Sequence record: PP989839.1
Strand: one strand, 5' to 3'
Source: Escherichia phage VTCCBPA_322
DNA length: 64,000 nucleotides
Both the position numbers and the translations under genes were made by a program. The notes under the pieces were generated by a model. It made no database searches. It was not told where the DNA came from and saw only the letters and a program-made list of their open reading frames with translations. Of this stretch, positions 724 to 26,300 are shown one piece after another (positions within the stretch are counted from its first letter, which is position 1; each line of letters begins with the position of its first letter).

Positions 724-3021
724 ATGAACGAAATGTTCTCGCAAGGTGGCAAAGGCTCCACTGGTATTCTTACCAATAAGCAAGCTATTGCCCGTCATTT
801 TGGTATTAAGCAATCCGAGGTTCTTTACTTCTCTGTTGGTGCTGTATTAGATGGTTATAAAGTCATTTATGACAAGTCCACTCAAAGGAGTTATTCCTTA
901 CCTGCTGGTATTCCATCTGGCACTACTGCTATTAGTCTAAGCACTGCTGCTGTACTTGTACACTCAGCAGGCAGTGAGGACTTAGGTACTTTGGCTGCTA
1001 CTCGTAAGGAATTTATAACTAAGCAGGAGAACTTTAATACAGGCTTTACTATTAGTACCCATAATGAGCAAGTAGTTACTCCTGGTGGGGTTTACTACTG
1101 GGCAGGGTCTTTACCTAAAGTTGTACCTCCTGGTTCCTCTATTGAGGAAACTGGTGGGGTGAATGCTACTGCATGGGTTAATTCATACTCCAATGCTGTC
1201 TTATGTATTAAGGATTTGCTGACACATCCACAGGGTGGCACAGTTAGTGTGGTTGGTTACATTTCTGGTACGGACTTTGGTGGTGGTGATTTTTACTGGG
1301 ATGCTACTCGTCCACGTAGTAAACATAATGGTATTACAGTATTCAGTCCTACTGTTCCATTTAGTGGTTTATATACGGATATACCGAATTTCCATGCTAA
1401 GGTTGGAGAGACTGCACCTGATGCCAATGGTTGTTGGGTGCGTAAGGACTGTGGTCGTAAAGTTCTAATGTCATGGGGTGGTGTAGATATTTCAGGCACT
1501 CAGCCAATGGATGCCGTAGTAACAAGTATGTGTACTTATGTGCATAATACTCGTCAGATTTTGGATGCTGATGAGAATGCTGTACTTAAGGCAGGGTTTA
1601 CTACCGGTACTCAGACCAAAGATAAGCACAATGTGTTTACCCAAGCTTCTGTAATCTTAGAGGGTAAGTATGTCACCATTCGTGGTAATGGGGCTAAGAT
1701 TGATACATATCACCCTGTCCACAGAGAACGTTCTGTATTTGTTCTTCGTAATGGTGGGTATAACATTTCTGGTTTTAAATGGAATGATGGGTACACTGAC
1801 TTTAGTACTTCCCCTACGGATACCCAGCACAAACAAGGTGAATGGTGGATGGGTATTGTTGCAGATGGTGCAGTTACTTTAGTAGCTGACCACCATGAAG
1901 TAACTGCTTCTCAGGTATTTGTACGAGCAGATGCATTTAATGCTACGGACTGGAATGAAAGAGTAACTGTACGGTATAGTAAGTTTGACTACATTACTAA
2001 CTACTGTTTCCTTAGTCGTAAGCTGAAACATTATGAGTTCAGCTACAATGAGGTTAAACACAATGGCCGTGAGTGGCATACTTATGGGGAAGCATGTGCT
2101 CCAACCACATACACCACACATACTATTATACGTAGTAATAACTTCTTCAATCAGATCGCAGAACAATCCTGTATTACTCCTGGGTCATACCATAAGTCCT
2201 GTCTGATTGTTAATAACCATTGTGAACGCTATCGAGGCATTTTCGTTGAGATTGGTTCTTCCAGTAATATCAGCATTCTGAATAACTACTCTTATTCCAG
2301 TGGTGAAAGGGATAGTTCTCATATCCTACTTGTATCTGGTGGGGTAGATGACGAACCAGAGGGTGGTTTGAATAACTTGTTGATTAACGGTAATGTGTTT
2401 GAGAGTGGACCGTATACGCTGCGGGAGTACAACACTGGTACTCCAGTTCGCAGAGGCATTACATTCTCTAATAACCACATTATTGATTGCCCTATGCCTA
2501 ATATGGGTAATGCTGCTTACCACTCAATGGCATTTACCAATAACTACTGCCAGCCACCAGCAGACTTCCCGTATCTGGTATGGGCAGGTAAGAATCCAAT
2601 TATTGAAGGCAATACTTTTGTTGGTGGGGTTATTCGTGCTAGAGATCTGGGTTATACCATTACTAACCCAATCATTCGTAATAACGTATTCCGTGATGGT
2701 AGTACTGTTCAGACATTCCCTGCATTAATTGATATGACTGACTTTACCCGTTTAGTTGCTGAGGGTAACGATGTAACTAATGCTACCTTTACTCGTGTAA
2801 TTGTTGATCCAGCCAACTGTACTTCGGTCGGGTTTAAACGTATTGGGCAGGCAGAGGGTTTTGAATCTAACCCAGCTACCTTGTATGGTGCTAAACTTAC
2901 GGATGTAATTAATGGTGATATTGTGATGAACAATAACCCAGGTAATGCTGAAGGTGGTTACGCATGGGTATGCGTAAATTCTGGTTCTAAACAATTTGGT
3001 AAAATTGTCGTAGCTGTGTAA
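724..3021 (+). CDS. tailspike / tail fiber with right-handed beta-helix (pectate-lyase-like) domain, putative depolymerase
   Basis: ATG with GAAGAGG RBS; 765 aa; Asn-rich rung segments (NNHCERYRGIFVEIG, NNLLINGNVFESG, FSNNHIIDCP, IRNNVFRDG) typical of parallel beta-helix tailspikes; strong terminator downstream. Confidence 0.65.
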   Translation: MNEMFSQGGKGSTGILTNKQAIARHFGIKQSEVLYFSVGAVLDGYKVIYDKSTQRSYSLPAGIPSGTTAISLSTAAVLVHSAGSEDLGTLAATRKEFITKQENFNTGFTISTHNEQVVTPGGVYYWAGSLPKVVPPGSSIEETGGVNATAWVNSYSNAVLCIKDLLTHPQGGTVSVVGYISGTDFGGGDFYWDATRPRSKHNGITVFSPTVPFSGLYTDIPNFHAKVGETAPDANGCWVRKDCGRKVLMSWGGVDISGTQPMDAVVTSMCTYVHNTRQILDADENAVLKAGFTTGTQTKDKHNVFTQASVILEGKYVTIRGNGAKIDTYHPVHRERSVFVLRNGGYNISGFKWNDGYTDFSTSPTDTQHKQGEWWMGIVADGAVTLVADHHEVTASQVFVRADAFNATDWNERVTVRYSKFDYITNYCFLSRKLKHYEFSYNEVKHNGREWHTYGEACAPTTYTTHTIIRSNNFFNQIAEQSCITPGSYHKSCLIVNNHCERYRGIFVEIGSSSNISILNNYSYSSGERDSSHILLVSGGVDDEPEGGLNNLLINGNVFESGPYTLREYNTGTPVRRGITFSNNHIIDCPMPNMGNAAYHSMAFTNNYCQPPADFPYLVWAGKNPIIEGNTFVGGVIRARDLGYTITNPIIRNNVFRDGSTVQTFPALIDMTDFTRLVAEGNDVTNATFTRVIVDPANCTSVGFKRIGQAEGFESNPATLYGAKLTDVINGDIVMNNNPGNAEGGYAWVCVNSGSKQFGKIVVAV

Positions 3022-3024
3022 ACG

Positions 3025-3050
3025 AAAGCCCCCAATTAAGGGGGCTTTTC
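3025..3050. terminator. intrinsic terminator shared by tailspike gene (+) and opposite-strand ORF (-)
   Basis: AAAGCCCCC-AATTAAG-GGGGGCTTT stem-loop followed by TTTTCC on plus strand; A-run gives U-run on minus strand. Confidence 0.7.
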
Positions 3051-3500
3051 CTATATGGAGTTCACTGTTTGCATTACCCTGACTGACACTGATGTTAGGG
3101 TAATTACTTGACCTGAGATATTGAACATACCCAGCTGGATACCATCTACCATAAACGGGTCTGTTGAACCGAGTGTGTAAGTAGCTAATACATTATCTCT
3201 GTTAGCAATGTCCGTACCTTGTACCTTAACACTAGCGTCTGAACCCACTATCGTAGTTCCATTGGTTCGCCTTGTTTGTGTTCTCCATTCCCTAGCTGTA
3301 CCAGCACCTCCTGCAATAGTTCCTGAGATACGTACACTAAACATTACCTGGGTATTTCTGGTTCTAACAGGAAACTTAAGATTACCCTCTTCAATTGTTA
3401 GTGCTGCTGTACCTCCAGGAGTTTTAGTCATGCCTGGTAAAGCAAAGTAATTGAACCAGGACTGGTCATTTACTGCCTGGTTCCCTGTCCACGTATACAA
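3051..3500 (-). CDS. hypothetical protein encoded opposite to the late module
   Basis: 450-nt stop-free frame (chance unlikely); TTG at 3500 or ATG at 3431 as start, neither with a strong RBS; Gly/Thr-rich product. Confidence 0.35.
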   Translation of the reverse strand: MYTWTGNQAVNDQSWFNYFALPGMTKTPGGTAALTIEEGNLKFPVRTRNTQVMFSVRISGTIAGGAGTAREWRTQTRRTNGTTIVGSDASVKVQGTDIANRDNVLATYTLGSTDPFMVDGIQLGMFNISGQVITLTSVSVRVMQTVNSI

Positions 3501-3520
3501 GTCCAGAAGGAAAGTATCTT

Positions 3521-3676
3521 CTAACTCGGTTGGGGGAAAGGTAGCAGTTCTGGTGGGATCTCTGAGATGTTATTAGCAGAAACTATTCGTTCCCCATAAC
3601 TTCCCACGACCAACAATCCTCCCTTCATTTTGCATACAACATCCTTACCACTTTGGAAAATATCTTTAATAGACAT
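3521..3676 (-). CDS. small hypothetical protein (51 aa)
   Basis: ATG at 3676 preceded by GCGAGGT RBS at 6-nt spacing; directly upstream of ORF 3051-3500 in a different frame. Confidence 0.35.
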   Translation of the reverse strand: MSIKDIFQSGKDVVCKMKGGLLVVGSYGERIVSANNISEIPPELLPFPQPS

Positions 3677-3800
3677 AGTTACCTCGCAGTCGATACCAGA
3701 CACTATGTCTGGATGTATTCCATCATACTAAGTATTATCTAAGAGTCATCTTATGATACGACCCTATTGGGGTTCCTAACTTTACAACTACGGTAATATT

Positions 3801-4130
3801 ATGAATGAATCGGGTGAACTGCTTCTAGTCAGACTGGAGGAACGATTGAAGACTCTGTTTGAGAACCAGACAAGGGACAGGCAGGACCGTGAGAAACTGG
3901 AGGAAACTCTGGGAGAACTACGGGATTCAATCAATGACATAGGCAATAGACTAAAGAATGTGGAGGATAGCTTAGCTAAGAATGAACCTACTATTGAAGA
4001 GTTCATCACCATTAAGCATAAGGTCGTTGGTGCCGGAATTTTTGGTAAGTGGGTATGGGCTGGGGCAGGTGCAATTATCGGGGTACTGGCTGCTGCAAGA
4101 CGGGAGATATTCGCATGGTTCGCAGGCTAA
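3801..4130 (+). CDS. membrane-anchored coiled-coil protein, possibly lysis-associated
   Basis: ATG at 3801; charged coiled-coil N-terminus and C-terminal Gly/Ala-rich hydrophobic segment (VVGAGIFGKWVWAGAGAIIGVLAAA); first gene of lysis cluster. Confidence 0.45.
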   Translation: MNESGELLLVRLEERLKTLFENQTRDRQDREKLEETLGELRDSINDIGNRLKNVEDSLAKNEPTIEEFITIKHKVVGAGIFGKWVWAGAGAIIGVLAAARREIFAWFAG

Positions 4131-4375
4131 AAAGAAAAGTAGAGTTAGTACCTAACTGGAAAAGATGCTGGAAGTGGGCATCAGTTCAAATTAGTACGTT
4201 TGGTTTAATTCTATTCTCTGCTGTAGATATCATCCAACCAATGATGACAGGATTACCTCGCCACATCCTGGATGATATTCCTCATGGTTCCAATATTGCA
4301 ATCGCACTGTTTGCCTTAAACATCATAGGTAGATTAATACGATTCCGTCCAAAGGAAAATTCTCATGAAAGCTAA
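4115..4375 (+). CDS. putative holin (two transmembrane segments)
   Basis: ATG at 4115 with GGGAGA RBS (ORF track used GTG at 4049); basic N-terminus, two hydrophobic helices, charged C-terminus; immediately upstream of endolysin. Confidence 0.5.
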   Translation: MVRRLKRKVELVPNWKRCWKWASVQISTFGLILFSAVDIIQPMMTGLPRHILDDIPHGSNIAIALFALNIIGRLIRFRPKENSHES

Positions 4376-5000
4376 ACAGAAACTTGCTGCGAAAGGTGGT
4401 GCAGTGGGAGGAGTTGTCGCTGCTATTCTGGGGGCAGTGTTCTATATGGAAGGGGGTTATGTAAACAATCCTCGTGACCCAGGTGGGGAAACTAATCATG
4501 GTATTACCCAATCAGTAGCTAAGTCTCACAAAGAAGTTCTGGCTACTGAGTATGGTTGGGATGGTTCTATGAAGGGTTTATCTAAAGAGATGGCTGCTGA
4601 GATATACATTGATGACTACGTACTTAAGCCTAACTTCGTAGCCTTCGCTGATATATCTCCTGCTGTAACACATAAGCTGGTAGATGCTGGTGTTAATACT
4701 GGTGTGACTCGCCCGGCTAAGTGGTTACAGTTATCCCTTAATGAAATGTCCCGTGATGGCAAAGACTACCCTAAAATACAGGTTGATGGTAAAGTCGGTG
4801 TAAGTACTGTTAATGCATATAAAGCATTACAGAAAAAACGAGGCAAAGTTGCAGCATGTCAAGTAATGATTAAGCTGCTTGATGCTAAACAACTGAACCA
4901 CTATACCTCATTAAACATGCCAGACTTTACGTATGGTTGGGTAGCTAACCGAATTGGCAATGTGCCACTGGAGGCATGTAATGAAGACGCTAATCTCTAA
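4365..5000 (+). CDS. endolysin, glycoside hydrolase family 108 N-acetylmuramidase with PG-binding C-terminal domain (N4 gp61-like)
   Basis: ATG with AGGAAA RBS; N-terminal signature EGGYVNNPRDPGGETNHGIT typical of GH108; preceded by Gly/Ala-rich hydrophobic stretch suggestive of a SAR anchor. Confidence 0.8.
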   Translation: MKAKQKLAAKGGAVGGVVAAILGAVFYMEGGYVNNPRDPGGETNHGITQSVAKSHKEVLATEYGWDGSMKGLSKEMAAEIYIDDYVLKPNFVAFADISPAVTHKLVDAGVNTGVTRPAKWLQLSLNEMSRDGKDYPKIQVDGKVGVSTVNAYKALQKKRGKVAACQVMIKLLDAKQLNHYTSLNMPDFTYGWVANRIGNVPLEACNEDANL

Positions 5001-5487
5001 AGGTTGGCCTTATCTTCTGGTGGTGGTCCTTGGGGCCACCATTTACTTTTGGGGCAATTCCAATGGACAGTCTACTGTTCAAAAGAAATGGGATGCCCAA
5101 AAGGTTGAAGACCAAAAGGCAACACAAAAATTACAGGACAAATACAATGCTCTCCAAAGAAACCATAGTTATGAAGTCGGGTTACTCACTTCCCGGTTGC
5201 AGACGGCTGAGAGTAATTACGCAAGCGAGCTTGCTCGCGTTAGCAGTGATTACGACAGCCGGATGCAACAGTCTGAAAGGCGAGCATCGGTATATAAACG
5301 TCAAGCCGAAGCCGGAACCCTTGAGTGCAGAAGTCTTGCAAGCCATGCAGCCAGACTCGACAATAGTCTTGAAGAAGGCAGACGTTTGGTTGAAGAACTC
5401 CGGGCAACTGTTAGACTCCGTGACAACCAACTAATTGAGTTGGGTAAACAAATTCAGGCTGACCGTAAACTTTTTGAACAGGAATAA
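4981..5487 (+). CDS. i-spanin (Rz-like)
   Basis: ATG at 4981 overlapping endolysin stop; N-terminal TM ([16 protein letters not shown]) then long charged coiled-coil periplasmic domain; contains embedded lipoprotein ORF. Confidence 0.65.
5171..5434 (+). CDS. o-spanin (Rz1-like outer-membrane lipoprotein) embedded in +1 frame of i-spanin gene
   Basis: ATG at 5171; signal peptide with lipobox-like ITTAGC; mature part short and Pro-rich (KPKPEPL); fully nested in 4981-5487. Confidence 0.6.
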   Translation: MKSGYSLPGCRRLRVITQASLLALAVITTAGCNSLKGEHRYINVKPKPEPLSAEVLQAMQPDSTIVLKKADVWLKNSGQLLDSVTTN

Positions 5488-5489
5488 CT

Positions 5490-7760
5490 ATGGAACACCA
5501 AGACACTTTTAAGCCTTTACCAGACCCGGCTCAATCAGAGAAGTTAACGGACTGGAAGAAGGAACCAAGTATCCAATTACTGAAAGGTGATCTGGAATCT
5601 GCTAAACCTGCTCACGATGCAATCATGGCACAAATTCGTGAGTGGAATGACTTAATGGAAGTCAAGGGTAAGGCTAAACCCCCAAAGGTAAAAGGGCGTT
5701 CACAGGTCCAACCTAGACTGGTTCGCCGTCAGGCAGAGTGGCGTTATGCTCCATTGTCTGAACCATTCCTTTCTTCTAATAAACTCTTTAAAGTAACCCC
5801 AGTTACTTTTGAAGATGAGTTAGCTGCTCGTCAGAATGAACTAGTTCTTAACTACCAATTCCGTACTCAGCTTAATAAAGTAAAATTGGTAGATGATTAT
5901 GTGCATAGTGTCGTAGATGACGGTACTGGTATTGCTCGTATCGGTTGGGAACGTAAGACTGTTAAGATTAAGACAGAAACCCCAGTCTTCCAGTTGTATC
6001 CAATTGAGAACCAGGAACAAGCAGATGTTCTTCAACAGGCTTTGCAGCTTCAGGCAGAGAATCCCCGTGAGTATGACGAAACAATGCCGGAAGATATCAA
6101 GGAAGCTGTTAACTACTTCAACGAAACTGGAGAAGCTACTTATGCAATCCAGACTGGAGTTACTGAAGTAGAGGTAGAGAAAGCACTGGTTAACAGACCT
6201 ACTGTTGAAATGCTTAATCCAAATAACGTAGTTATCGACCCAAGCTGTAATGGTGACTTAGATAAGGCTCTTTATGCAGTTATCTCCTTTGAGACTTGCA
6301 AAGCAGACCTTATGAAAAACAAAGACCGTTATCACAACCTGGATAAAATTGACTGGGAAAGTTCCAGCCCCATTACTGACCCAGACCATGAAAGTAAAAC
6401 CCCTAGCGATTTCCAGTTTAAGGATGCACTTCGTAAGAAGGTAGTTGCTTATGAGTACTGGGGATTCTACGACATCAATGATGATGGTTCATTGGAACCA
6501 ATTGTTGCTACATGGATTGGCTCTACTCTTATTCGTATGGAGAAGAACCCATTCCCTGATGGCAAGTTACCATTGGTAGTTGTTCCTTACATGCCACGTA
6601 AACGTGAACTCTATGGTGAAGCTGATGCTGAATTGTTAGGCGACAACCAGGCAATTCTTGGTGCAACTATACGTGGGATGATTGACCTGTTGGGTCGAAG
6701 TGCAAATGGTCAACGTGGTTATCCTAAAGGGATGTTAGATACCCTGAACCGTCGTCGATATGATGATGGGCAAGACTATGAATATAACCCAATGCAAGGT
6801 AATCCCAGTCAGTCCATTATGGAACATAAGTTCCCTGAGTTGCCTCAGTCTGCAATAGTAATGACTCAGATGCAAAACCAGGAAGCAGAAGCATTAACAG
6901 GTGTTAAGGCATTTTCTGGTGGTGTAACTGGTTCAGCTTACGGTGATGTTGCTGCCGGTATTCGTGGTGCACTCGATGCAGCATCCAAACGTGAGATGGC
7001 AATCCTACGTCGATTAGCTAAAGGCATGGCAGACATTGGTACTAAGATTTGTGCAATGAATGCTGTGTTCTTATCTGAGAAAGAAGTAGTACGTATTACT
7101 AATGAACAGTACGTGGAAATTAACCGTGAAGACCTTAAAGGTAACTTCGACATTGAGGTTGATATTAATACTGCTGAAATTGATAACCAGAAATCCCAGG
7201 ACTTGAGCTTCATGGTTCAAACATTAGGTAATACAGTTGACCAGACTATTACGTTATCTCTTGTAGCAAAAATTGCAGAACTTAAACGTATGCCTGACCT
7301 TGCACATGAGTTACGTACCTGGCAACCACAACCAGACCCTATGGAAGAACAGCTTAAGCAATTGGCAATTCAGAAAGCACAGCTTGAGAATGAAGAGTTG
7401 CAAAGTAAAATTGCACTCAATATGGCTAAGGCTAAAGAGGCTGCTTCTAGCGGTGACCTTAAAGACCTGGATTATCTGGAGCAGGAATCTGGTACTAAAC
7501 ATGCTCGTGATATGGAGAAACAAAAAGCACAATCCCAAGGAAACCAGAACCTTCAGATAACTAAGGCGTTGACAACACCTACTAAAGAAGGTGAAACTAC
7601 CCCCAACATATCTGCTGCTGTTGGATATAACGCTTTGACTAACGGGAACTCTATACCAGAACGTGACTTAGCTGCACAACAAGACCCAGCTTATTCACTT
7701 AGTTCCCAATTTTATGACCCTAGCCAAGACCCAGCATCGGCTCTTGGCATGAACTTGTAA
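5490..7760 (+). CDS. portal protein (N4 gp59-like)
   Basis: 756 aa; position between lysis cassette and scaffold/capsid genes; size matches N4-type portal; assignment by synteny. Confidence 0.6.
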
Positions 7761-17345: not shown

Positions 17346-17383
17346 TTCCTATATACGATATAAGTTTGAACAGGAAACATGCT

Positions 17384-20300
17384 ATGTCAACATTTGACCG
17401 TCTGGCAGGTTTCGCAGACAGCATCACTAATGCCAAGCAAGTCGATGTCTCTACTGCAACCTCTCAGAAGCAAGCTGCACAAGGGCAAAGCCCTTTCCAA
17501 TTAACCCCAGAGAATGCTTACAATCTCCAAACTGGTCGTGTAGGTAATCTTGGAATCGGTGCATTCGAACCAGGTTCACTTCAGGCAGATTTCACTCAAG
17601 CCTCTCCATTAGAAATTCTTAATAAATACGGTAATGAGCAAGGTCTACAGATTCTTAATAGCCGAGCTAATGCTGCTGATGTTGTACGTCAGGACTTATC
17701 TAAGCAACGTACTAACGCAGAAGCATTTGGTGATACTCTTTCTGGTGTTGGTCTTGGTGTTGCTAATACCCTTGGGGGCATTGCTGCTCTTGGCACAGGT
17801 CTGGTCAATGATAATGCCGGGGCATCCATTGCTTCCGGGATGGATTGGTTGAATGAAGGTGTACACAATCTACAGTCTGATGCACTGAATGCTACCCGTA
17901 AGGTTGTTCAGAATCAGAACCTGATTTCTGCACAAAAGAACCAGAAACTTTATGAAGAAGACATTAAGAATGGGGAGAGCAGTTTGGTTGCCTCCTTGTC
18001 TCGCATTGGTCGTGACGCTTTTGATTCCGTTGCTAATACACTTGATAATGGTATGGCTGCCACCGATGGACTGAGTGAAGGTGTTGGTTCCCTCTTTACT
18101 GGTGGTCCACTTATCCGTGGTGTATCTGCACTTGGTAAAGTAATGGTAGGTGGTGATAAAGCTATTAAAGGTATTACCTTAGCTGCTGAGTTAGGTTCAC
18201 GCCCTGCACAGGTTGCATTGTCTGCTGGTCGTGTTGCTGCACCTGCTATAGCAATTGGTGGTATGGAAGCTGGTGGTGCATACCAACAGACTGCTTCTGA
18301 AATCATGAAGATGTCCCATCAAGAATTAGCAAGTAAGTCTCCTGTTTATCAACAACATATTGCTGATGGTTTATCCCCTGATGAAGCTCGTCGTCAGACT
18401 GCATCTGAAACAGGTATCGTTGCTGCTGGCTTAACTGCTCCGGTTGCTGCTGCTACTGGTCCACTGGTATCCAAATTTGAACTCAACCCCCTTAAAGTAG
18501 GTTCACTGGCTGGTGCTGGCTCTAACATGCTACGTGAGACTGTAGAAGAAGGTATCCAGTCCGGTACTAGTCAGTTTGCACAGAACAAAGCAATTCAGGG
18601 TAATGTAGATGCTAAGCGTGATTTGCTTAAAGGTGTCGGTGAACAAGCAGGTCTTGGTGCACTTTATGGCTTCGGTAGTGCTGGTGTTGCTCAGGCTCCA
18701 GGTGCAACTGTTAAAGCTGTTGGTGCTTCTGCTGGGCCTGCTTTACGTACTACTCTGGCTGGTGCTTCTCTGGTTGGTAGTGCATTAGCAAAAGCTGCCT
18801 CTCCTATTACTAACATCCTGGTTCAACGTGGGGAAGAAGTTGCTAAGCGTAATGAACAAGCATCTCCTGTATCAGACGCTACAGTTAACGCTGCTGCACA
18901 AGAAGCTACTGCTCAGGCAGAACAAGCACAAGCAACTGTACAGGAAGCAGTAGATGCAATGGATATTTCTCCTGAAGAGAAAGCTGCTGCTACTCAGTAT
19001 GCTGCTGACTTAACTCAGGCAATGAAGTTTGACCCAGTAGAGTTAGAGCAAGCTAATCCAGCAATCCGTGAAGCTGTTTCTGGTTCCACTAACCGTGTAG
19101 AAGCTATTCAGAAGATGGCTGACCTGGTTAATACTGCTGAAGACCCTAACGTTCAAATGGAAGCTGCAATCCAGATGTATGACAACATCATGTCTATGGA
19201 TAGCTTCATTAATCGTGACCCGGGTGCTTTGGCTAATCTGGAACAGGGTTCTCCTGCTGCTAATATTGTTGACCAGTTCTCCGGTCTGATGGCTAACGTA
19301 CAGAATACTCCAAAGGTACTTCGTGCATTCCGTGCCATCCATTCTATGATTCAGGAACAGGCTGAAGCAGGTAAGTTAAAAGCTACTGAAGAAGCTAATC
19401 AAGCCCAAGCAAACAACATTGCTATGGCTGCTGATATGTCTCCAGAAGTATTGGATGCAGATTCAGTGAACATGGTTCTGAAACATGCAAGTGAAGGTAA
19501 GATTACACTGGGTAATCGTCAGCGTGCTGCCTTGCAATCTGCTGCTGCTTTATTACAAGGAGCACGGGAATTTGACGCTAAAGCAGAAGAACTGGGCTTA
19601 CGTCCTCAGGACATTGTTAGTAAACAGATTAAAACCGACGAATCTCGTTCTAATGAAGGTCAGTACTCTGCGTTGCAACATGCTAAACGCATTCGTTCTG
19701 CGTACAACTCTGGTAACTTCGATTTGGCTTCCGCTTATCTCGACGACTTTATGAAGTTCGCCCAGCACATGCAGAATAAGGTCGGAGCGTTGAATGAGCA
19801 TCTGATTTCTGGGAATGCGGATAAGAATAAGTCTGTCCATTATCAGGCTCTTACTCCCTCCCGTGAATGGGTACGTAGTCGTACTGGCCTCGGTGTCAAT
19901 CCGTATGATACCAAGTCGGTTAAGTTTGCCCAGCAAGTAGGACTGGAGGCCAAAACCGTAGCTGATATTGCTAATGCACTTGCTACGGCTTACCCGGAGC
20001 TTAATGTTTCTCATGTGAAGGTTACCCCATTAGATTCACGTCTGGACAAGCCTGCTGCCCAGGTGGTTAAAGAGTTCCGTCAGGGCAATCTTGACGCTGC
20101 TCAATCCCAACAGACCAATGAACCAGTGAATCAGGTTGATAAATCTCCTGCACCTGTGCAAGAGGCCACTACTACTGTACAGCCTAAAGCTAAACTAGTG
20201 GTAGAAAATAAGACTGTTCCTGTTAAGGAGACTAGTTCAAAAGCAGAAGAAGTCTCTACTACCGAATCCGAAAGGGATGCTTATGTGAAAGAAAATACTA

Positions 20301-23300
20301 TTTCACAGGACATCCTCAATAAGAGCGGTGATCGTAGAGAGAGTCCTTGGCTCTTTGCTGATGGTACTGTTGTTGGTTCTAACGGCGATCACATTAGCCT
20401 GTCCGATGTATTTGGTCACGATGGCTATCGTGATATGTCTTTGGATACTGGTGCTGTACGTTCTACTTTCTATAAAGGCAGTGAGCAACCATTCGTATCT
20501 TTGCAACTTTTTGATAATCAGAAGCTAACTACTGAACAATTCAATACTGTTCAATCATTCGTAGAAGCAAACAATGCACTGATTCAGATTGGTGTAGATA
20601 CGTCTGGGCGTAACACCAATAACGTTGAGAAGATAGAAGTATCACTGGCCCAACTGAAAGCAGACTATACCGTTGGTGGTAAACCCCTGTCTGAGATGGA
20701 AACAGTGTTCCCTGTCTATAACAATGACAAGACACCGAACCAGTTCCTGAAAGCATTTACCCTGCCGGAAGAACCTAAGTCTCGCACCATTGGTTCTGAA
20801 TCCCCTTTGACTGATGTTAAGCAAGCACTGTCTTCTGCTGCTCGCTTTGAAGCATTCACTCAAAAAGAAAATAACGCTCTCACAAGTGATGTGATTAAGC
20901 GTTATCAGGACTTAATGGACTTTGGTGAAACTCTGAAGACTACTTTGTCTGACCGTCTGACTAAGTTTCTTGCTAATAAGAATGTTGGTAAACGTTTTGC
21001 AGAAGGTACTGAGGCTAACCGTTGGGTAGGTGGTAAGTTACTTAACATCGTAGAGAAAGATGGGGATACCTTTAAGTTCAATGACCAGTTGTTAGAGACT
21101 GCTGTACTTGCTGGTCTGCAATGGCGACTTACTGCTACACAAAATGCTGCTGTTAAAGATATGAAAGACGTAGCTGCTATTACTGGAGTAGAAGCATCCT
21201 TGTTACCTGAAGGTATCCTGGCTGAATTTGAGAATGCTCAGACTCTGGTTGAAGCTACTAACTCACTGGCTCAAAAGATTGAATCTTACTGGGGTCTGAA
21301 TCGTAATCCTAATGCACCTCTGGGTTATACCAAAGGTATCCCAATGGCAATGGCTACAGAGATTCTGTCTTCTTTCATTGAGATGGGTGAAGTTAAAGAA
21401 TCTATGCTGGATGTGTCTGAGTTTGACCCAGCTTCTAATAAGACTGTTGGTCTGTATACTATTGAGAAACTGGATGATAATGATGCCATTAACAAATTCC
21501 CTACTGCTATTGAGGAAGCTGTCCTCGTAGAACCAGAAGAGAAAATGTACTTTGGTGATGATATTCCTTCCGTGGCTCAAACACAGTTACGTAATCCTGC
21601 TGTTAAGAATACCCCAGAGCAGAAAGCTGCTCTTAAAGCAGAACAGGCTACCGAGTTCCGTGTACACATGCCTATGGTTAACTTCTATGAAGCATTAGGT
21701 CGTGACAACATTCTGGAACTGATGGGTGCTGGTACTCTTAATCCTGAACTGCTGAACGTGAATACTGCTAAATCATTGGAAGGTAAAAACCTGTCCGTGT
21801 CCATGGCATATGATTCCTTGTTTGGTGTAATCAATCAATTACAGGAACAGGAGAATGGTCTGGATACGCCTATTCACTATGGTTACAACATGACCCGTGT
21901 AGGTCGTATGCAGATGCTTGGTAAGAACAACCCACAATCCAGCAAGCTGGTTCGTGAAGCAATTCTGCCAACCTTCTCTACTATTGACTTAAGTAATGAA
22001 AATAGCCAAACGTTCTCTGACTTCCAGTTAGGTCTGGCTCAGGCATTGGGCATCAAGGTTCATAATATGTCCCGTGAAGCTATGTCTGAAAAACTGACCA
22101 AAGCTCTGGAAGGTAATTTGAAACCTGCTGTTGATATGATGGTTGAGTTTGATAAGTCCGGTCACTTACCTGCTGATGCAGTAGATATTCTGAAGACATC
22201 TCTGGGTGGTGATAAATCATTCGTAGCTCTTATGGCTCTTATGGAATATGCCCGTTACCTTAACAGTACTGACCGTGCTAACTTTAATACCCCACTGTAC
22301 GTTGAAGCCGATGGTGTAACCAACGGGCCAATCAATGCAATGGTATTAATGACCGGTGGTAAGTTCACTTCGGATTGGATTAAGAATACTGCTAAAGGTG
22401 GTTTGTTCTTCGGTAAAGCTGGTAAGACTATGAACGAACACCGTTCACAGGATGACAGTGTTGACTTGTATGAAGCATCTACTAATGGTCTGCAACAAGC
22501 ACTAAATGAGTTACGTACTACTTACCGTAATAATGTTCCGGTCATGAACCAGATGAATCATCTTCAGAAGTTAATGGACCTGTTCATTAAAGACTTTAAC
22601 CTGAACGAAGACGGTACTTTGGACCTGAAACGTGGTATCGCTAAAAACCCACTGACTATTACCATCTATGGTTCTGGTGCTCGTGGTATTGCTGGCAAGA
22701 TGGTTAGTGCAATTACTGACACCATCTATGAACGCTTCAGTGATGTTCTGCAAGCTCGTGCTGCTGACCCTAGCATTTCCCCAGCTATGGCAATGTTTGG
22801 TAAGGAGGCTGCGTCTGAGGCTAATGCTCAGGCTATGCTGGATACTTTCCTTACATCTATGGAAGCACTGACTGGTAATGTTCCAGTTATGCGTAAAGGT
22901 CAACTGTCTATTCAACAGGTAGAAGGTGCTCTGACTGGTAAGTTAGACCCACAGAAATTTACTGTATCTGGTAATGCCCTGAAGAACTTACAAGAGAACA
23001 TGCTTCACCTGTTCGTTGAACCAATGCGTACTGGTATCCGTAATACTGTTGGTGAAGGTCTTATGCATTCTACTGAGAACTTGCAGAAGGCTACCCAGAT
23101 TCAGTCTTTGGTTCTGCAAGACATGTTCCAACAAGCAGTACAGGCTAAGCTGGCAGAAAAAGAAAAAGACCCAACATGGAAGAAGGGTGATTTCTTAACA
23201 CAGAAAGAACTTAATGAAATCCAGGAATCATTATCTCCACTGGCTCCAATGATTGAGACTGGTTCACAGACTTTCTACATTGCTGGTAGTGAGAATACTG

Positions 23301-26300
23301 ACGTTGCTAACCAAGTTCTGGCTACCAACTTAGATGATCGTATGCGTGTGCCAATGAGCATCTATGCTCCTTCACAGGCAGGCGTTGCAGGTATTCCATT
23401 TATGACCATTGGTACTGGCGATGGCATGATGATGCAGACCCTTTCTACTATGAAAGGTGCTCCGAAGAATACCCTGAAAATCTTTGATGGTATGAACATT
23501 GGTATCGACAACATCACTGATGCAAGTCGTAAAGCTAACGAGGCTGTATACACTTCCTGGCAGGGTAACCCTATCAAGAATGTCTACGACTCCTTCTCTA
23601 AGTTCATGAAGAATGTAGACTTCAGCAAACTGTCTGATGAAACCAAACAGGCTATCGCTAAATCTGCTCTGGAATATGACCAGCGTGAAGGTGCTACCGA
23701 TGACCTGTTACGTGTTGGTGCTGAACAGATTGAACGTAATCTGCGCAACATTGCTCTGGGTGTGGATATTCGCCACAAAGTAATGAACCAGGTACAGACT
23801 ACTGTTGACCAGATGGCTGCTGTAGGTGCTCCTTATGTGAACAACGGTAAAATCTCTCTGGAAGGTCTGACTGTAGACCAGCAAGTAGCTAAGCTGAACG
23901 AACTGTTTGATGCTGAGTTAAACAAGCGTCGTGATGCAGTACGTGCTGCTAAAGCAGAACCAGTGAAAGAAGTACCAGCAATGGAACAGGTTGGTCGTGT
24001 ACTGAAGTCTGGTGTACGTCTGCTGTCTAATACTGCTATCTCTAAGCTGGCTAAAGAGATGTCTCCGGAACAGCAAGCGGTACTGAAAGAAGTACAGAAA
24101 TCCCTTGCTGCTAAAGACTACAAAGTTGTTTATGGTACTCCTGCTCAATTAGATGCTTATGCTATTGAGAAGAATATTACTCGCCCAGCACCAGAAGATA
24201 TTGAAGCTGCTGAAGCAGGTAATGCATACGGCTGGACTAACTTTGATGATAAGACTATCTACTTAGTTACCCCTTCCTTGGAGACTCTGGTTCATGAATT
24301 GGTACATGCTTCTACTTTCGAATCTGTACTGGCTCATTATGAAGGTACTCCAAATGAAGCAGTCCAAAATATTGAAGACTTAATGAATCAGTTCCGTACT
24401 CTGGATGTTAAGGATGAATCTCCGGCAGTACGCGAAGCATATGCAGATGCTCTTAATACCATTAATGGTCATTTGTCTAATGGCTTCATTGAACCAGCAA
24501 TGGCTAAAGCTGCTGCACTTAACGAGTACATGGCATGGGGTTTAACTAACCGTGAACTAATTAGCAAGCAGAAGAAAACTACTGCACTGAAGACTATGGT
24601 TCAGGCTGTGTATGAAGCAATCAAGCGTCTGGTATTCGGACGTAAGAAAGCTCCCGCTAATGCAGATGATATGTTCTCTGGTTTACTATTTAACTCTGCT
24701 GTAGTTATGCGAGGACAAGCTCCTACTGCTGCTGTAGCCAAGGATACTACTCTGTTCCATAACAAAGCATACGGTGACAATACTCGTCTGGAAGAGCTAG
24801 GGAAAACCTTCGATAAACTGATTACAGACTACATTGGTTCAGAACCAGTACAACAAGTAATTCGTAAGGGTAAATTCTCTGATGCAGTAGTGAATGCAAC
24901 TAAAGTAACCCGTGATGTTCAGGCTCATGGCTTCACTATGAATATGCAGGAACAGCGTCTATTCACTAACATCGTTGCTGCTCTGGCTACTGAAGCTGCC
25001 ATTAGTCCTGCTGCCCTGGCTCGTGCACAGGAATACTATACGCATGTTACTAAGAACCTGACCGTTGAATCGTTCATGGCTGACCCGGATAGTACTAACC
25101 CTGCTGACCGTTACTATGCTCAACAGAAGTTCGATACCATTATGGGTGCTAACAATATTGAGTTTGATGCACAGGGCCGTTCTTCCTTACTGCCTACCTT
25201 TGTTGGTCTGGCAATGGTAAGTGAAGAGGTACGTAAAGTACTGGCAGACATTCCTGTTATGAAAGCAGATAAGCAATCCGGTAATACAGTTGATGCAATG
25301 CTGACTAACATTGGTACTGCTGCAATGGCTAGTCTGAATGCTCGTGTAGCGGGTGATACTAAGGCTACCAATGTACAGGAAGGTATGGATGCACTGGCTC
25401 AGACAATCATGCAGACGAGTCTCAATGCACAGTCCTTCTATGATTCCGTTGCTACTCCTAGTGGTAATGCTATTGACCGTGCTAACCAGTATCTGGTGGA
25501 TTCTATTGATGCATTGTCTACCCGTGCTTTAGAAGGTGCTCGTGAAGTTGCAGCTAATACCAAGAACCCGTTGGTTAAAGGTGCTGCTCATGCTGCACAA
25601 CTAATAGCTGCTATTGCTACAGAGAAGAATGGTGAAATCGTAGCTGAAGGCGTTATGGCTGCAATGAACCAGGGTAAAGTGTGGCAACCTTTCCATGACC
25701 TGGTTAATGACTTAACAGGCCGTACTAAGAGCAATGCTTCTGTATACGATTTGATTAAGGCAGTACGTGCACAGGTACAAGCTGACCGTCAACAGTTCCG
25801 TGAACATTTGCCTACCACTATCGCATCTAAGTTCAGCCGTAAGCTGACTAATGATGAATGGAAAGCAATGCATACTGGTATGGGTAAAACTGACTTAGCT
25901 GTTTTACGTGACACTATGTCTCTGGCTGAAATTCGTGACTTGCTGACTGACCAAAAGATTGTTGACCGTGAAGTGAATAAGCTGGAAGCAGACTTACAGA
26001 AACAAGCTGGTCGTAACTGGCCTCTGATTAGCCGTAAATCTAAGCAACTAGCTCAGTACATGATTAACGGTACAGTTGGTAATAACCTGCTGCGTAATGC
26101 TACAGCAATCTCTCGTATGCTGGGTGAACGTCAGGCTGCACGTTCTACTGTAGATGTAGCTCAACTGGATAAACTGATTACTCTGTATGCACTGGAAGCA
26201 ATGAGTAAGACTGACCGTGAGATGTTATCTTCACTGGCTCAATCAGAAGTTGATGGAATTGATTTTGCTACTTCTTACCTGGTTGGTCAGCGTAAAGATG

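Follow-up and report, generated by a model that had tools for sequence, protein, structure and literature searches.

Positions 3801–5487 of the window (the whole stretch of 64,000 nucleotides analyzed here) very probably encode the lysis cassette of a G7C/Bp4-like coliphage of the N4 family: a multigene locus with the predicted organization of a pinholin / SAR-endolysin / two-component-spanin system. The cassette is of a known kind, matching the system worked out experimentally in phage N4, for which the main study is a preprint (Awuah et al., bioRxiv 10.1101/2025.11.12.688109). The earlier note had described a compact lysis cassette, and the genes are indeed present where it placed them: five overlapping genes on the + strand, with an ATG at 3801 opening the first and a TAA (5485–5487) closing the last (ORF reading), the portal gene beginning immediately beyond, at 5490. 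A PHROGs search of the cassette returned endolysin, holin and Rz-like spanin. No tRNAs were found within the window; a promoter/terminator scan of positions 3000–6000 gave counts no higher than those of shuffled sequence and is therefore uninformative.

The genes of the cassette are one-to-one orthologs of N4 gp63-gp62-gp61-gp60/gp60a (56–68% amino acid identity), and the two phages share the order of the five genes, their overlaps and the adjoining portal gene; they differ upstream, where the neighbors are G7C-type tailspike genes here and gp64/gp65 in N4. The N4 lysis cassette itself reportedly goes back to Stojkovic & Rothman-Denes 2007, J Mol Biol 366:406. Nucleotide comparison shows the cassette to be 94–96% identical to approximately 40 sequenced coliphages: Gamaleyavirus coliphages (G7C, Bp4, UE-M6, St11Ph5, pSb-1 and others) carry the same genes at this level of identity, with point differences only, and their endolysins are 95–99.5% identical over the catalytic part. 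Judged from sequence, the source phage is a G7C/Bp4-like Gamaleyavirus (Schitoviridae), the window matching sequenced coliphages at 95–96% DNA identity. Public annotation of Gamaleyavirus cassettes is inconsistent: the gp63-like gene is often entered as 'tail length tape-measure protein', the Bp4 record has a truncated i-spanin, and the o-spanin is often unannotated.

Table 1. Features of the lysis cassette, in window coordinates.
Feature	Position	Strand	Basis
gp63-like protein, 109 aa, predicted pinholin	3801..4130	+	68% identity to N4 gp63; phrog_5211 (E 2.7e-50)
gp62-like protein, 86 aa, two TMDs	4115..4375	+	62% identity to N4 gp62; PF25612; phrog_1356
gp61-like endolysin, 211 aa (SAR + predicted GH108 N-acetylmuramidase + PG_binding_3)	4365..5000	+	Pfam, orthology, fold
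SAR (signal-anchor-release) domain, aa 1–28	4365..4448	+	composition, homolog conservation
GH108 catalytic domain, aa 24–113	4434..4703	+	Pfam match
Glu29 codon (GAA), EGGY motif	4449..4451	+	invariant GH108 glutamate, directly after SAR helix
PG_binding_3 domain, aa 117–196	4713..4952	+	Pfam match
gp60-like i-spanin, 168 aa	4981..5487	+	phrog_6197; 56% identity to N4 gp60
gp60a-like o-spanin, 87 aa precursor	5171..5434	+	sequence; embedded in i-spanin gene, +1 frame

At the center of the cassette is the endolysin, whose reading frame begins MKAKQKLAAKGGAVGGVVAAILGAVFYMEGGYVNNPRDPGGETNHGIT and whose product is 68% identical to N4 gp61. Both Pfam families named in the earlier note scored above cut-off: PF05838 (Glyco_hydro_108) at E 5.6e-20, with 72.1 bits (cut-off 21.2) and a match spanning profile positions 3–85 of 85, and PF09374 (PG_binding_3) at E 3.4e-7, with 30.8 bits against 24.6. 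The GH108 assignment is borne out by fold: an AlphaFold2 model (pLDDT 93.3) found TtsA (6V40), Sen1395 (6V3Z), SagA (7DNP) and NMB1012 (2IKB) as its best Foldseek matches, with probability 1.00. These soluble proteins of Salmonella, Brucella (SagA) and Neisseria (NMB1012) share with the endolysin the GH108 + PG_binding_3 fold (TM-scores, normalized to target length, reach 0.79; 27–37% identity) and the EGGY...DPGG motif, present here as E29-G-G-Y32 and D38-P-G-G41. In an alignment of 55 homologs, E29, D38, P39, G40 and G41 do not vary. Glu29, placed by alignment at the EGGY motif of the solved structures and present in all of 94 unique N-termini as well, is from family knowledge the presumed catalytic residue. 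The protein is a predicted N-acetylmuramidase, which would cleave the MurNAc-GlcNAc bond. N4 gp61 is the founding member of the GH108 muramidase family, and it is for N4 gp61 only that this activity is documented biochemically (as cited in Awuah et al.). The only NCBIfam hit was below threshold: against NF040573 (holin-associated N-acetylmuramidase, TtsA type) the endolysin scored 56.3 bits, far below the cut-off of 240, and is therefore related in fold without being a member of the equivalog. Cys165 and Cys205 of the endolysin are candidates for a disulfide bond.

The N-terminus of the endolysin has the composition of a SAR domain. A Lys-rich n-region, MKAKQKLAAK (four Lys, zero acidic residues), is followed by 18 uncharged residues, GGAVGGVVAAILGAVFYM (aa 11–28), which end right at Glu29. 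The earlier note had placed the GH108 signature directly after the hydrophobic segment; with the segment at aa 11–26 and the motif at aa 29–48, Y27 and M28 lie between, and the description is nearly exact. The call of a transmembrane segment is based on hydropathy, composition and homology. For aa 11–28 the G+A+S fraction is 0.50 and the Kyte-Doolittle mean 1.87; reference SAR domains give 0.50/2.48 (N4 gp61), 0.61/2.27 (R21) and 0.44/2.21 (P1 Lyz), the R21 and P1 Lyz sequences being verified against PDB 3HDE and 1XJT. The G+A+S fraction thus falls inside the proven SAR range of 0.44–0.61, while the TMDs of the gp62-like protein and the i-spanin, which are not SAR domains, give 0.22–0.33; the Gly-rich TMD of the gp63-like protein gives 0.44. 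The 18-residue stretch is short and, on the Kyte-Doolittle scale, less hydrophobic than that of N4. The summed insertion free energy – a Hessa-scale estimate without position weighting, using values reportedly those of Hessa 2005 – is +2.0 kcal/mol for the core of the endolysin and -0.2 kcal/mol for that of N4 gp61. The two proteins are alike in having an 18-residue uncharged core that abuts EGGY; they differ in the n-region, which is three residues longer here and has four Lys as opposed to three. An internal start at Met28, which would give a soluble isoform, was considered and rejected: homologs have Val, Leu, Met, Ile or His at this position (N4 has Val), and the G-run lies 11 nt upstream, a poor spacing for a start.

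This architecture – basic n-region plus an uncharged stretch ending at the invariant Glu – is kept in 120 of the 120 closest homologs. The uncharged stretch is 14–23 residues long in all but one of them (119/120), and the n-regions of the 102 homologs tabulated contain one to five Lys/Arg and never more than a single acidic residue. Such conservation, together with the sharing of the cassette among coliphages at 94–96% DNA identity, rules out chance. A SAR-type N-terminus, as proposed in the earlier note, is further supported by the identity to N4 gp61, which was already named a SAR endolysin in PMC4319500 and for which release by the gp63 pinholin has been demonstrated experimentally (Awuah et al.). 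The substitution G12E in N4 gp61 causes rapid lysis (Awuah et al.), and the corresponding residue, G15, is conserved here. R21 and P1 Lyz (PDB 3HDE and 1XJT) show the same succession of N-terminal basic residues and a Gly/Ala-rich, weakly hydrophobic helix, and the same pairing with a pinholin-type trigger (predicted here by orthology with N4). They differ in their uncharged run (24 residues as opposed to 18) and in their T4-lysozyme-like GH24 fold, which is unrelated to GH108: Foldseek found no significant similarity between the endolysin model and 1XJT (E 4.7). The SAR domain of the endolysin contains no Cys, so disulfide caging of the P1 type is impossible.

Other accounts of the N-terminus have features in their favor. 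One makes it a signal peptide that is cut off during Sec export, so that the endolysin would reach the periplasm as a processed, soluble enzyme; this is very unlikely. Lys44 of Oenococcus phage fOg44 is an example of an endolysin processed in this manner; the segment has the layout of an n-region plus h-region, and the small residues L-G-A at aa 22–24 are conceivable as a -3/-1 site. However, the residues found across the family at positions -3 (Phe) and -1 (Val/Leu/Met) before the invariant Glu break the -3/-1 rule, and cleavage upstream of this point would take away residues aligned with helix alpha1 of the solved GH108 structures, including the nearly invariant Ile21. Moreover, N4 gp61 is membrane-associated, and inserting charges into its hydrophobic stretch speeds lysis up, rather than abolishing it (Awuah et al.).

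The uncharged stretch ending at Glu in every clade member also argues against a cytoplasmic endolysin, with its N-terminus buried as the first helix of GH108 and the gp62-like protein serving as a canonical large-hole holin. The 'holin' labels of the two-TMD gene (phrog_1356, GenBank) speak for such an arrangement, as do the homology between alpha1 of soluble GH108 proteins and the segment's C-terminal half, and the slow release of lambda R by N4 gp62 (Awuah et al.). Yet in soluble GH108 proteins alpha1 is charged (DEIFAAILSRE in Salmonella TtsA; FAKAMPHVFSDE in SagA) and is preceded by neither a Lys-rich n-region nor a Gly-rich extension; they are enzymes associated with holins or with secretion systems, and are not tethered by a SAR domain. 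Furthermore, N4 gp61 works when paired with the pinholin S21, whose holes are impassable to a folded enzyme, and causes slow lysis alone, while N4 gp62 is non-essential and gp63 is the conditionally essential trigger (Awuah et al.): a cytoplasmic enzyme is thus highly improbable. Least credible of all, to the point of being negligible, is an endolysin that stays anchored for good as a type II membrane protein and digests peptidoglycan from its tether. The TMD-like segment and lack of an evident cleavage site are as expected, but segments such as this one (50% Gly/Ala, 18 residues, positive summed insertion free energy) are typical of SAR domains and not of stable anchors. In such a protein the invariant Glu would be kept at the surface of the membrane, a long way from the murein, and lysis by N4 is release-dependent (Awuah et al.).

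Two membrane proteins are encoded upstream of the endolysin. The earlier note listed these as a 'membrane protein' and a 'two-TM holin candidate': both genes are present, but orthology with N4 assigns them different roles, the first being a predicted pinholin that times lysis and the second a regulator. The gp63-like protein has an N-terminal, presumably cytoplasmic, coiled-coil region and a Gly-rich C-terminal TMD (~aa 75–99). The conserved 'Receiver' motif, PTIEEFITIKHK (aa 63–74), is the same as that of N4 gp63, and from P63 to the C-terminus the two proteins are nearly identical; T64 and T70 correspond to T65 and T71 of N4 gp63, the sites of rapid-lysis mutations (Awuah et al.). N4 gp63 complements the S21 pinholin and not lambda S105, and it is for N4 gp63 only that small lethal holes, freeing SAR but not soluble endolysins, are documented (Awuah et al.). 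The start of the gp63-like gene is ambiguous between ATG 3801, which has no obvious Shine-Dalgarno sequence, and an in-frame TTG at 3846, which has GGAGGA 4 nt upstream and matches the Met17 alternative start of N4; the N4 internal start also follows GGAGGA but is an ATG. The short form is the one annotated in the UE-M6 record.

The gp62-like protein has TMDs at ~aa 21–40 and 58–75 (hydropathy), basic termini, and matches to PF25612 (DUF7940; E 5.9e-14) and the phrog_1356 holin family (E 1.4e-31). Its gene shares 16 nt with the gp63-like gene before it and 11 nt with the endolysin gene after it. We refined its start to ATG 4115, which has GGAG 9 nt upstream. The longer reading from GTG 4049 is not favored, given the placement of GGAG and the short forms used in RefSeq for N4, G7C and Bp4. 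A longer form could nevertheless arise from GTG 4049 or ATG 4055: a 109-aa long form of gp62 is discussed for N4 (Awuah et al.), and both starts may thus be used. By orthology the protein is probably a non-essential lysis regulator with weak, triggerable, late holin activity.

Downstream of the endolysin gene, and overlapping its end by 20 nt, lies the gene for the i-spanin. Its start was refined to ATG 4981 (GGAGG 6 nt upstream) from TTG 4954; the match to the Rz-like spanin family phrog_6197 (E 1.9e-77) begins at aa 10 of the TTG-4954 ORF. The protein has an N-terminal TMD (~aa 8–24, hydropathy), followed by what is probably a periplasmic coiled coil. Embedded in the same gene is the o-spanin, which starts at ATG 5171 and has a lipobox, T-A-G|C, at the end of its signal (...AVITTAG|C; Cys32 = TGC 5264–5266). 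Both spanins of the earlier note are therefore present. The mature o-spanin has 56 aa, with Asn at +2; N4 gp60a is likewise embedded and of equal mature length, but the o-spanin here begins at an upstream MKS start and has a 31-aa signal. The frame is kept at the protein level in 158 phage records, and G7C annotates the embedded gene as gp60'. In N4, gp60/gp60a complement lambda Rz/Rz1 (Awuah et al.).

Orthology with N4 suggests the following course of lysis. The genes, which overlap and are probably coupled in translation, would be expressed late in infection, and Sec would insert the endolysin as a type II membrane protein, with the aa 11–28 helix in the inner membrane and the tethered muramidase body in the periplasm, held inactive against the bilayer. 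The gp63-like protein would build up in the membrane and trigger at a set time, its small holes collapsing the proton-motive force. On depolarization the SAR helix is predicted to exit the bilayer everywhere at once, allowing the GH108 muramidase to degrade the cell wall; the i-spanin/o-spanin complex, once free of the peptidoglycan mesh, would then disrupt the outer membrane. The gp62-like protein would be an accessory to these events, a regulator with slow holin-like activity. The holin-independent export envisaged in the earlier note is thus likely to apply to Sec-mediated insertion and to slow, leaky release, but synchronous release and activation would, by orthology with N4, need the pinholin.

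A further aspect concerns the relationship between the SAR helix and the GH108 fold. HMMER aligns aa 16–28 of the endolysin with the N-terminal segment of the soluble GH108 structures, which is taken to be helix alpha1. The conserved positions -11, -8, -7, -4 and -3 (counted from the Glu) lie on one helical face and are hydrophobic in TtsA and SagA too, a pattern that the endolysin has in common with the soluble proteins. From this alignment and the AlphaFold model we infer that the SAR helix provides, with its C-terminal half, helix alpha1, which may have been made membrane-competent by replacement of solvent-facing polar residues with Ala/Gly and by addition of a Gly-rich extension and Lys-rich tip. 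With part of the SAR helix serving as alpha1, and Glu29 next to it, embedding in the membrane would leave the fold incomplete and the entrance to the active site buried; release would complete the enzyme, much as the SAR helix of phage 21 R is built into the folded protein once it has left the membrane. 'Fold completion on release' in the manner of R21 would then have arisen a second time, independently, in a muramidase of unrelated fold.

Lysis inhibition, a feature of N4, is reportedly absent from G7C-type phages, and regulation may therefore differ between the two. The weaker SAR core could contribute to this absence, despite the conserved Receiver domain. Taken jointly, the two readings – a SAR helix that is also alpha1, with completion of the fold, and a weaker Gamaleyavirus core with leakier release – are put forward tentatively, as somewhat less than an even prospect; both go beyond what is published for N4.

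With the SAR/pinholin mechanism already dissected in N4, and near-identical phages in GenBank, the value of the cassette as a discovery is small. It lies rather in annotation: the pinholin is routinely mislabeled as a tape-measure protein or as 'hypothetical', the non-essential regulator is labeled 'holin', and many records omit the o-spanin. Where endolysins are engineered, deletion of aa 1–28 may remove a structural helix as well as the membrane anchor. Finally, comparison of the non-LIN Gamaleyavirus cassette with that of N4 could help to locate the determinants of lysis inhibition.

The compact lysis cassette proposed in the earlier note is present: five tightly packed plus-strand genes, orthologous to the lysis genes of phage N4 and named here after them, fill positions 3801-5487, with overlaps of 16, 11 and 20 nt between neighbors. 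Alignment of their products with the N4 lysis region (NC_008720) gave identities of 68% for gp63, 62% for gp62, 68% for gp61 and 56% for gp60, and gene order and overlaps are the same in both phages. Megablast with the segment 3500-5800 matched 87 phage records: the best – Escherichia phages UE-M6, UE-S5a/b, Bp4 and PD38, and Shigella phage pSb-1 (94-96% identity, 100% query coverage) – are all members of Gamaleyavirus (Schitoviridae, Enquatrovirinae), the G7C group of N4-like phages. The cassette is already known: at the family level through the N4 experiments, at the sequence level through near-identical genomes.

Features of the lysis cassette and its surroundings
Feature	Position	Strand	Description
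Tailspike gene	724-3021		765-aa ORF, upstream of the cassette
Hypothetical gene	3051-3703	-	broken; ORFs 3703..3521 and 3500..3051 in different frames
gp63-like	3801-4130	+	109 aa; long, polar N-terminal part; Gly-rich C-terminal hydrophobic segment
gp62-like	4115-4375	+	86 aa; two hydrophobic segments
Endolysin (gp61-like)	4365-5000	+	211 aa
i-spanin (gp60-like)	4981-5487	+	168 aa; N-terminal TMD
o-spanin (gp60a-like)	5171-5434	+	87 aa; +1 frame inside the i-spanin gene; lipoprotein signal ...AVITTAG|C
Portal gene	from 5490		directly after the cassette
Large ORF	17366-28096		3576 aa; TTG start

The portal gene matches PF23899 (SU10_portal, E 3.9e-150). The tailspike (PF18668 and PF13229 matches) combines an N-terminal adaptor domain of the TSP1/Gp66 type with a beta-helix; since UE-M6 carries a 'K5 lyase' and G7C carries gp63.1 at this position, it looks like an exchangeable receptor-binding module of the G7C group. 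The hypothetical gene between tailspike and cassette is a homologue of Bp4 orf14 and UE-M6_012 (phrog_17779). Alignment shows the window to be one base short at ~3533/3534 (CCC-CCAAC against CCCACCAAC in UE-M6 and Bp4), which is either a true frameshift, making a pseudogene, or a sequencing or assembly error. The large ORF has the size expected of an N4-type virion-encapsidated RNA polymerase, and is a candidate by size; no tRNA genes were found across the whole 64-kb window.

The gp60-like gene falls in phrog_6197 (Rz-like spanin, E 1.9e-77). The o-spanin corresponds to N4 gp60a, the mature form having 56 residues in both; because the second ATG of N4 is missing in the window, only the upstream MKS can serve as its start, and the signal is then 31 aa long. 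In N4, gp60/gp60a complement lambda Rz/Rz1 (preprint 10.1101/2025.11.12.688109). The o-spanin is unannotated in many Gamaleyavirus records, and the i-spanin is reduced to a 74-aa fragment in the Bp4 annotation.

The endolysin has a GH108 catalytic domain, as had been proposed. Both Pfam families named for checking matched above their gathering scores (PF05838 Glyco_hydro_108, E 5.6e-20; PF09374 PG_binding_3, E 3.4e-7), the gene belongs to phrog_315 (endolysin), and an AlphaFold2 model (55 homologues; pLDDT 93.3) gave significant Foldseek matches in the PDB only to GH108 structures: Salmonella TtsA (6V40), Sen1395 (6V3Z), Brucella SagA (7DNP) and Neisseria NMB1012 (2IKB/2IS5). N4 gp61 is the enzyme by which the family was defined (Stojkovic & Rothman-Denes 2007, as cited in later work). 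In the C-terminal half, Cys165 (4857-4859) and Cys205 (4977-4979) – both outside the signal-anchor-release (SAR) domain – are invariant in the 55 homologues and may form a periplasmic disulfide. A sub-clade of close database homologues (P0002-P0023, 79-89% identity) has EGGE...DPGGHT in place of EGGY...DPGGET: the co-occurrence of Tyr32->Glu with Glu42->His suggests that active-site or structural residues have been rearranged together, one change compensating for the other.

The hydrophobic string and GH108 signature cited in the earlier note match endolysin residues 11-26 (GGAVGGVVAAILGAVF) and 29-48 (EGGYVNNPRDPGGETNHGIT) exactly, and the SAR character of the N-terminus was judged by composition and hydropathy. 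Residues 1-10 include four Lys and are free of acidic side chains; no charge occurs in residues 11-28, which are 50% Gly+Ala and have a mean Kyte-Doolittle value of 1.87. This composition supports the proposed SAR reading, being comparable to that of reference SAR domains (Gly/Ala/Ser fraction and Kyte-Doolittle 0.50 and 2.48 for N4 gp61, 0.61 and 2.27 for phage 21 R, 0.44 and 2.21 for P1 Lyz; R checked against 3HDE/4ZPU, Lyz against 1XJT), although the N4 core is more hydrophobic. Among the other cassette TMDs the Gly/Ala/Ser fraction is much lower in the i-spanin and gp62-like protein (0.22-0.33), and is 0.44 in the Gly-rich gp63-like TMD. All 120 best database homologues (52-96% identity) have a basic n-region and, running right up to the invariant Glu of the E-G-G motif, a stretch without charged residues; it spans 14-23 residues in 119, the exception (P0078) having an Asp two residues ahead of the Glu. 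Since the segment lacks Cys, disulfide caging of the P1 Lyz type is excluded. N4 gp61 was termed a SAR endolysin already in 2015 (PMC4319500), and the Stenotrophomonas phage Philippe homologue carries the name 'SAR endolysin N-acetylmuramidase'.

HMMER alignments with soluble, solved GH108 proteins reach into this hydrophobic segment: residues 19-33 pair with DEIFAAILSREGGYV of TtsA, and 16-33 with GTFAKAMPHVFSDEGGYV of SagA. In the model, residues 12-29 form one unbroken helix. Across 94 unique N-termini the most conserved positions before the Glu are -8 (Ile, 89/94), -4 (Val, 88/94), -7 (Ile/Leu) and -3 (Phe), which share a helical face with -11 (Val/Ala/Ile), while the Gly-rich N-terminal half varies. 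TtsA and SagA are hydrophobic at the same conserved positions but charged in between, where the window clade has Ala/Gly/Ser. From these alignments we infer that the SAR domain may double as alpha1 of the GH108 fold; on the simplest reading, alpha1 would have become a SAR domain when its surface charges were lost and a Gly-rich extension and a Lys tip were added. If so, the endolysin would be incomplete as an enzyme as long as the helix stays in the bilayer.

That the N-terminus is instead a cleavable signal peptide is unlikely: bulky residues occupy the -3 and -1 positions, a cut further upstream would take away residues conserved in alpha1, and findings in N4 speak against it. A cytoplasmic endolysin served by the gp62-like protein as canonical holin is also improbable, being at odds with the uncharged stretch kept across the family and with N4 genetics, and so is a permanent anchor, which fits neither the segment's weak hydrophobicity nor the N4 release data.

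The earlier note's membrane protein and two-TMD gene both exist, the latter in phrog_1356 ('holin') and so labelled in Gamaleyavirus records, but its choice of holin probably needs exchanging. N4 gp63 complements the phage 21 pinholin and not lambda S105, and is therefore a pinholin; N4 gp62 is a dispensable 'lysis regulator' with late triggerable holin activity (both from preprint 10.1101/2025.11.12.688109). By orthology, the single-TMD gp63-like protein (phrog_5211, function unknown in PHROGs), not the two-TMD one, is likely the pinholin. Many GenBank/RefSeq Gamaleyavirus records label this predicted pinholin (2803-3132 and 948-1232 in L001 and L003, loci of sequenced relatives) 'tail length tape-measure protein (T)', and that of G7C 'hypothetical'. 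Its ATG at 3801 has no visible Shine-Dalgarno sequence; GGAGGA (3836-3841) does occur, 4 nt ahead of the in-frame codon TTG 3846, from which UE-M6 is annotated, and N4 has the same GGAGGA and an alternative start, Met17, at the matching position. The gene may have a dual start (holin/antiholin-like), or may be expressed mainly as a short form of 94 aa.

Rapid-lysis mutations in N4 fall in the gp61 SAR domain (e.g. G12E) and the gp63 'Receiver' segment (e.g. T65I, T71A; same preprint), and these sites are conserved in the window as endolysin G15 and as gp63-like T64 and T70 within PTIEEFITIKHK. N4-style lysis inhibition is reported absent in G7C-type phages. N4 gp61 functions with a pinholin or a large-hole holin, and alone gives slow lysis (preprint 10.1101/2025.11.12.688109). 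The holin-independent export foreseen for the endolysin is supported for export itself, whereas its synchronous release would, as in N4, be triggered by the pinholin.
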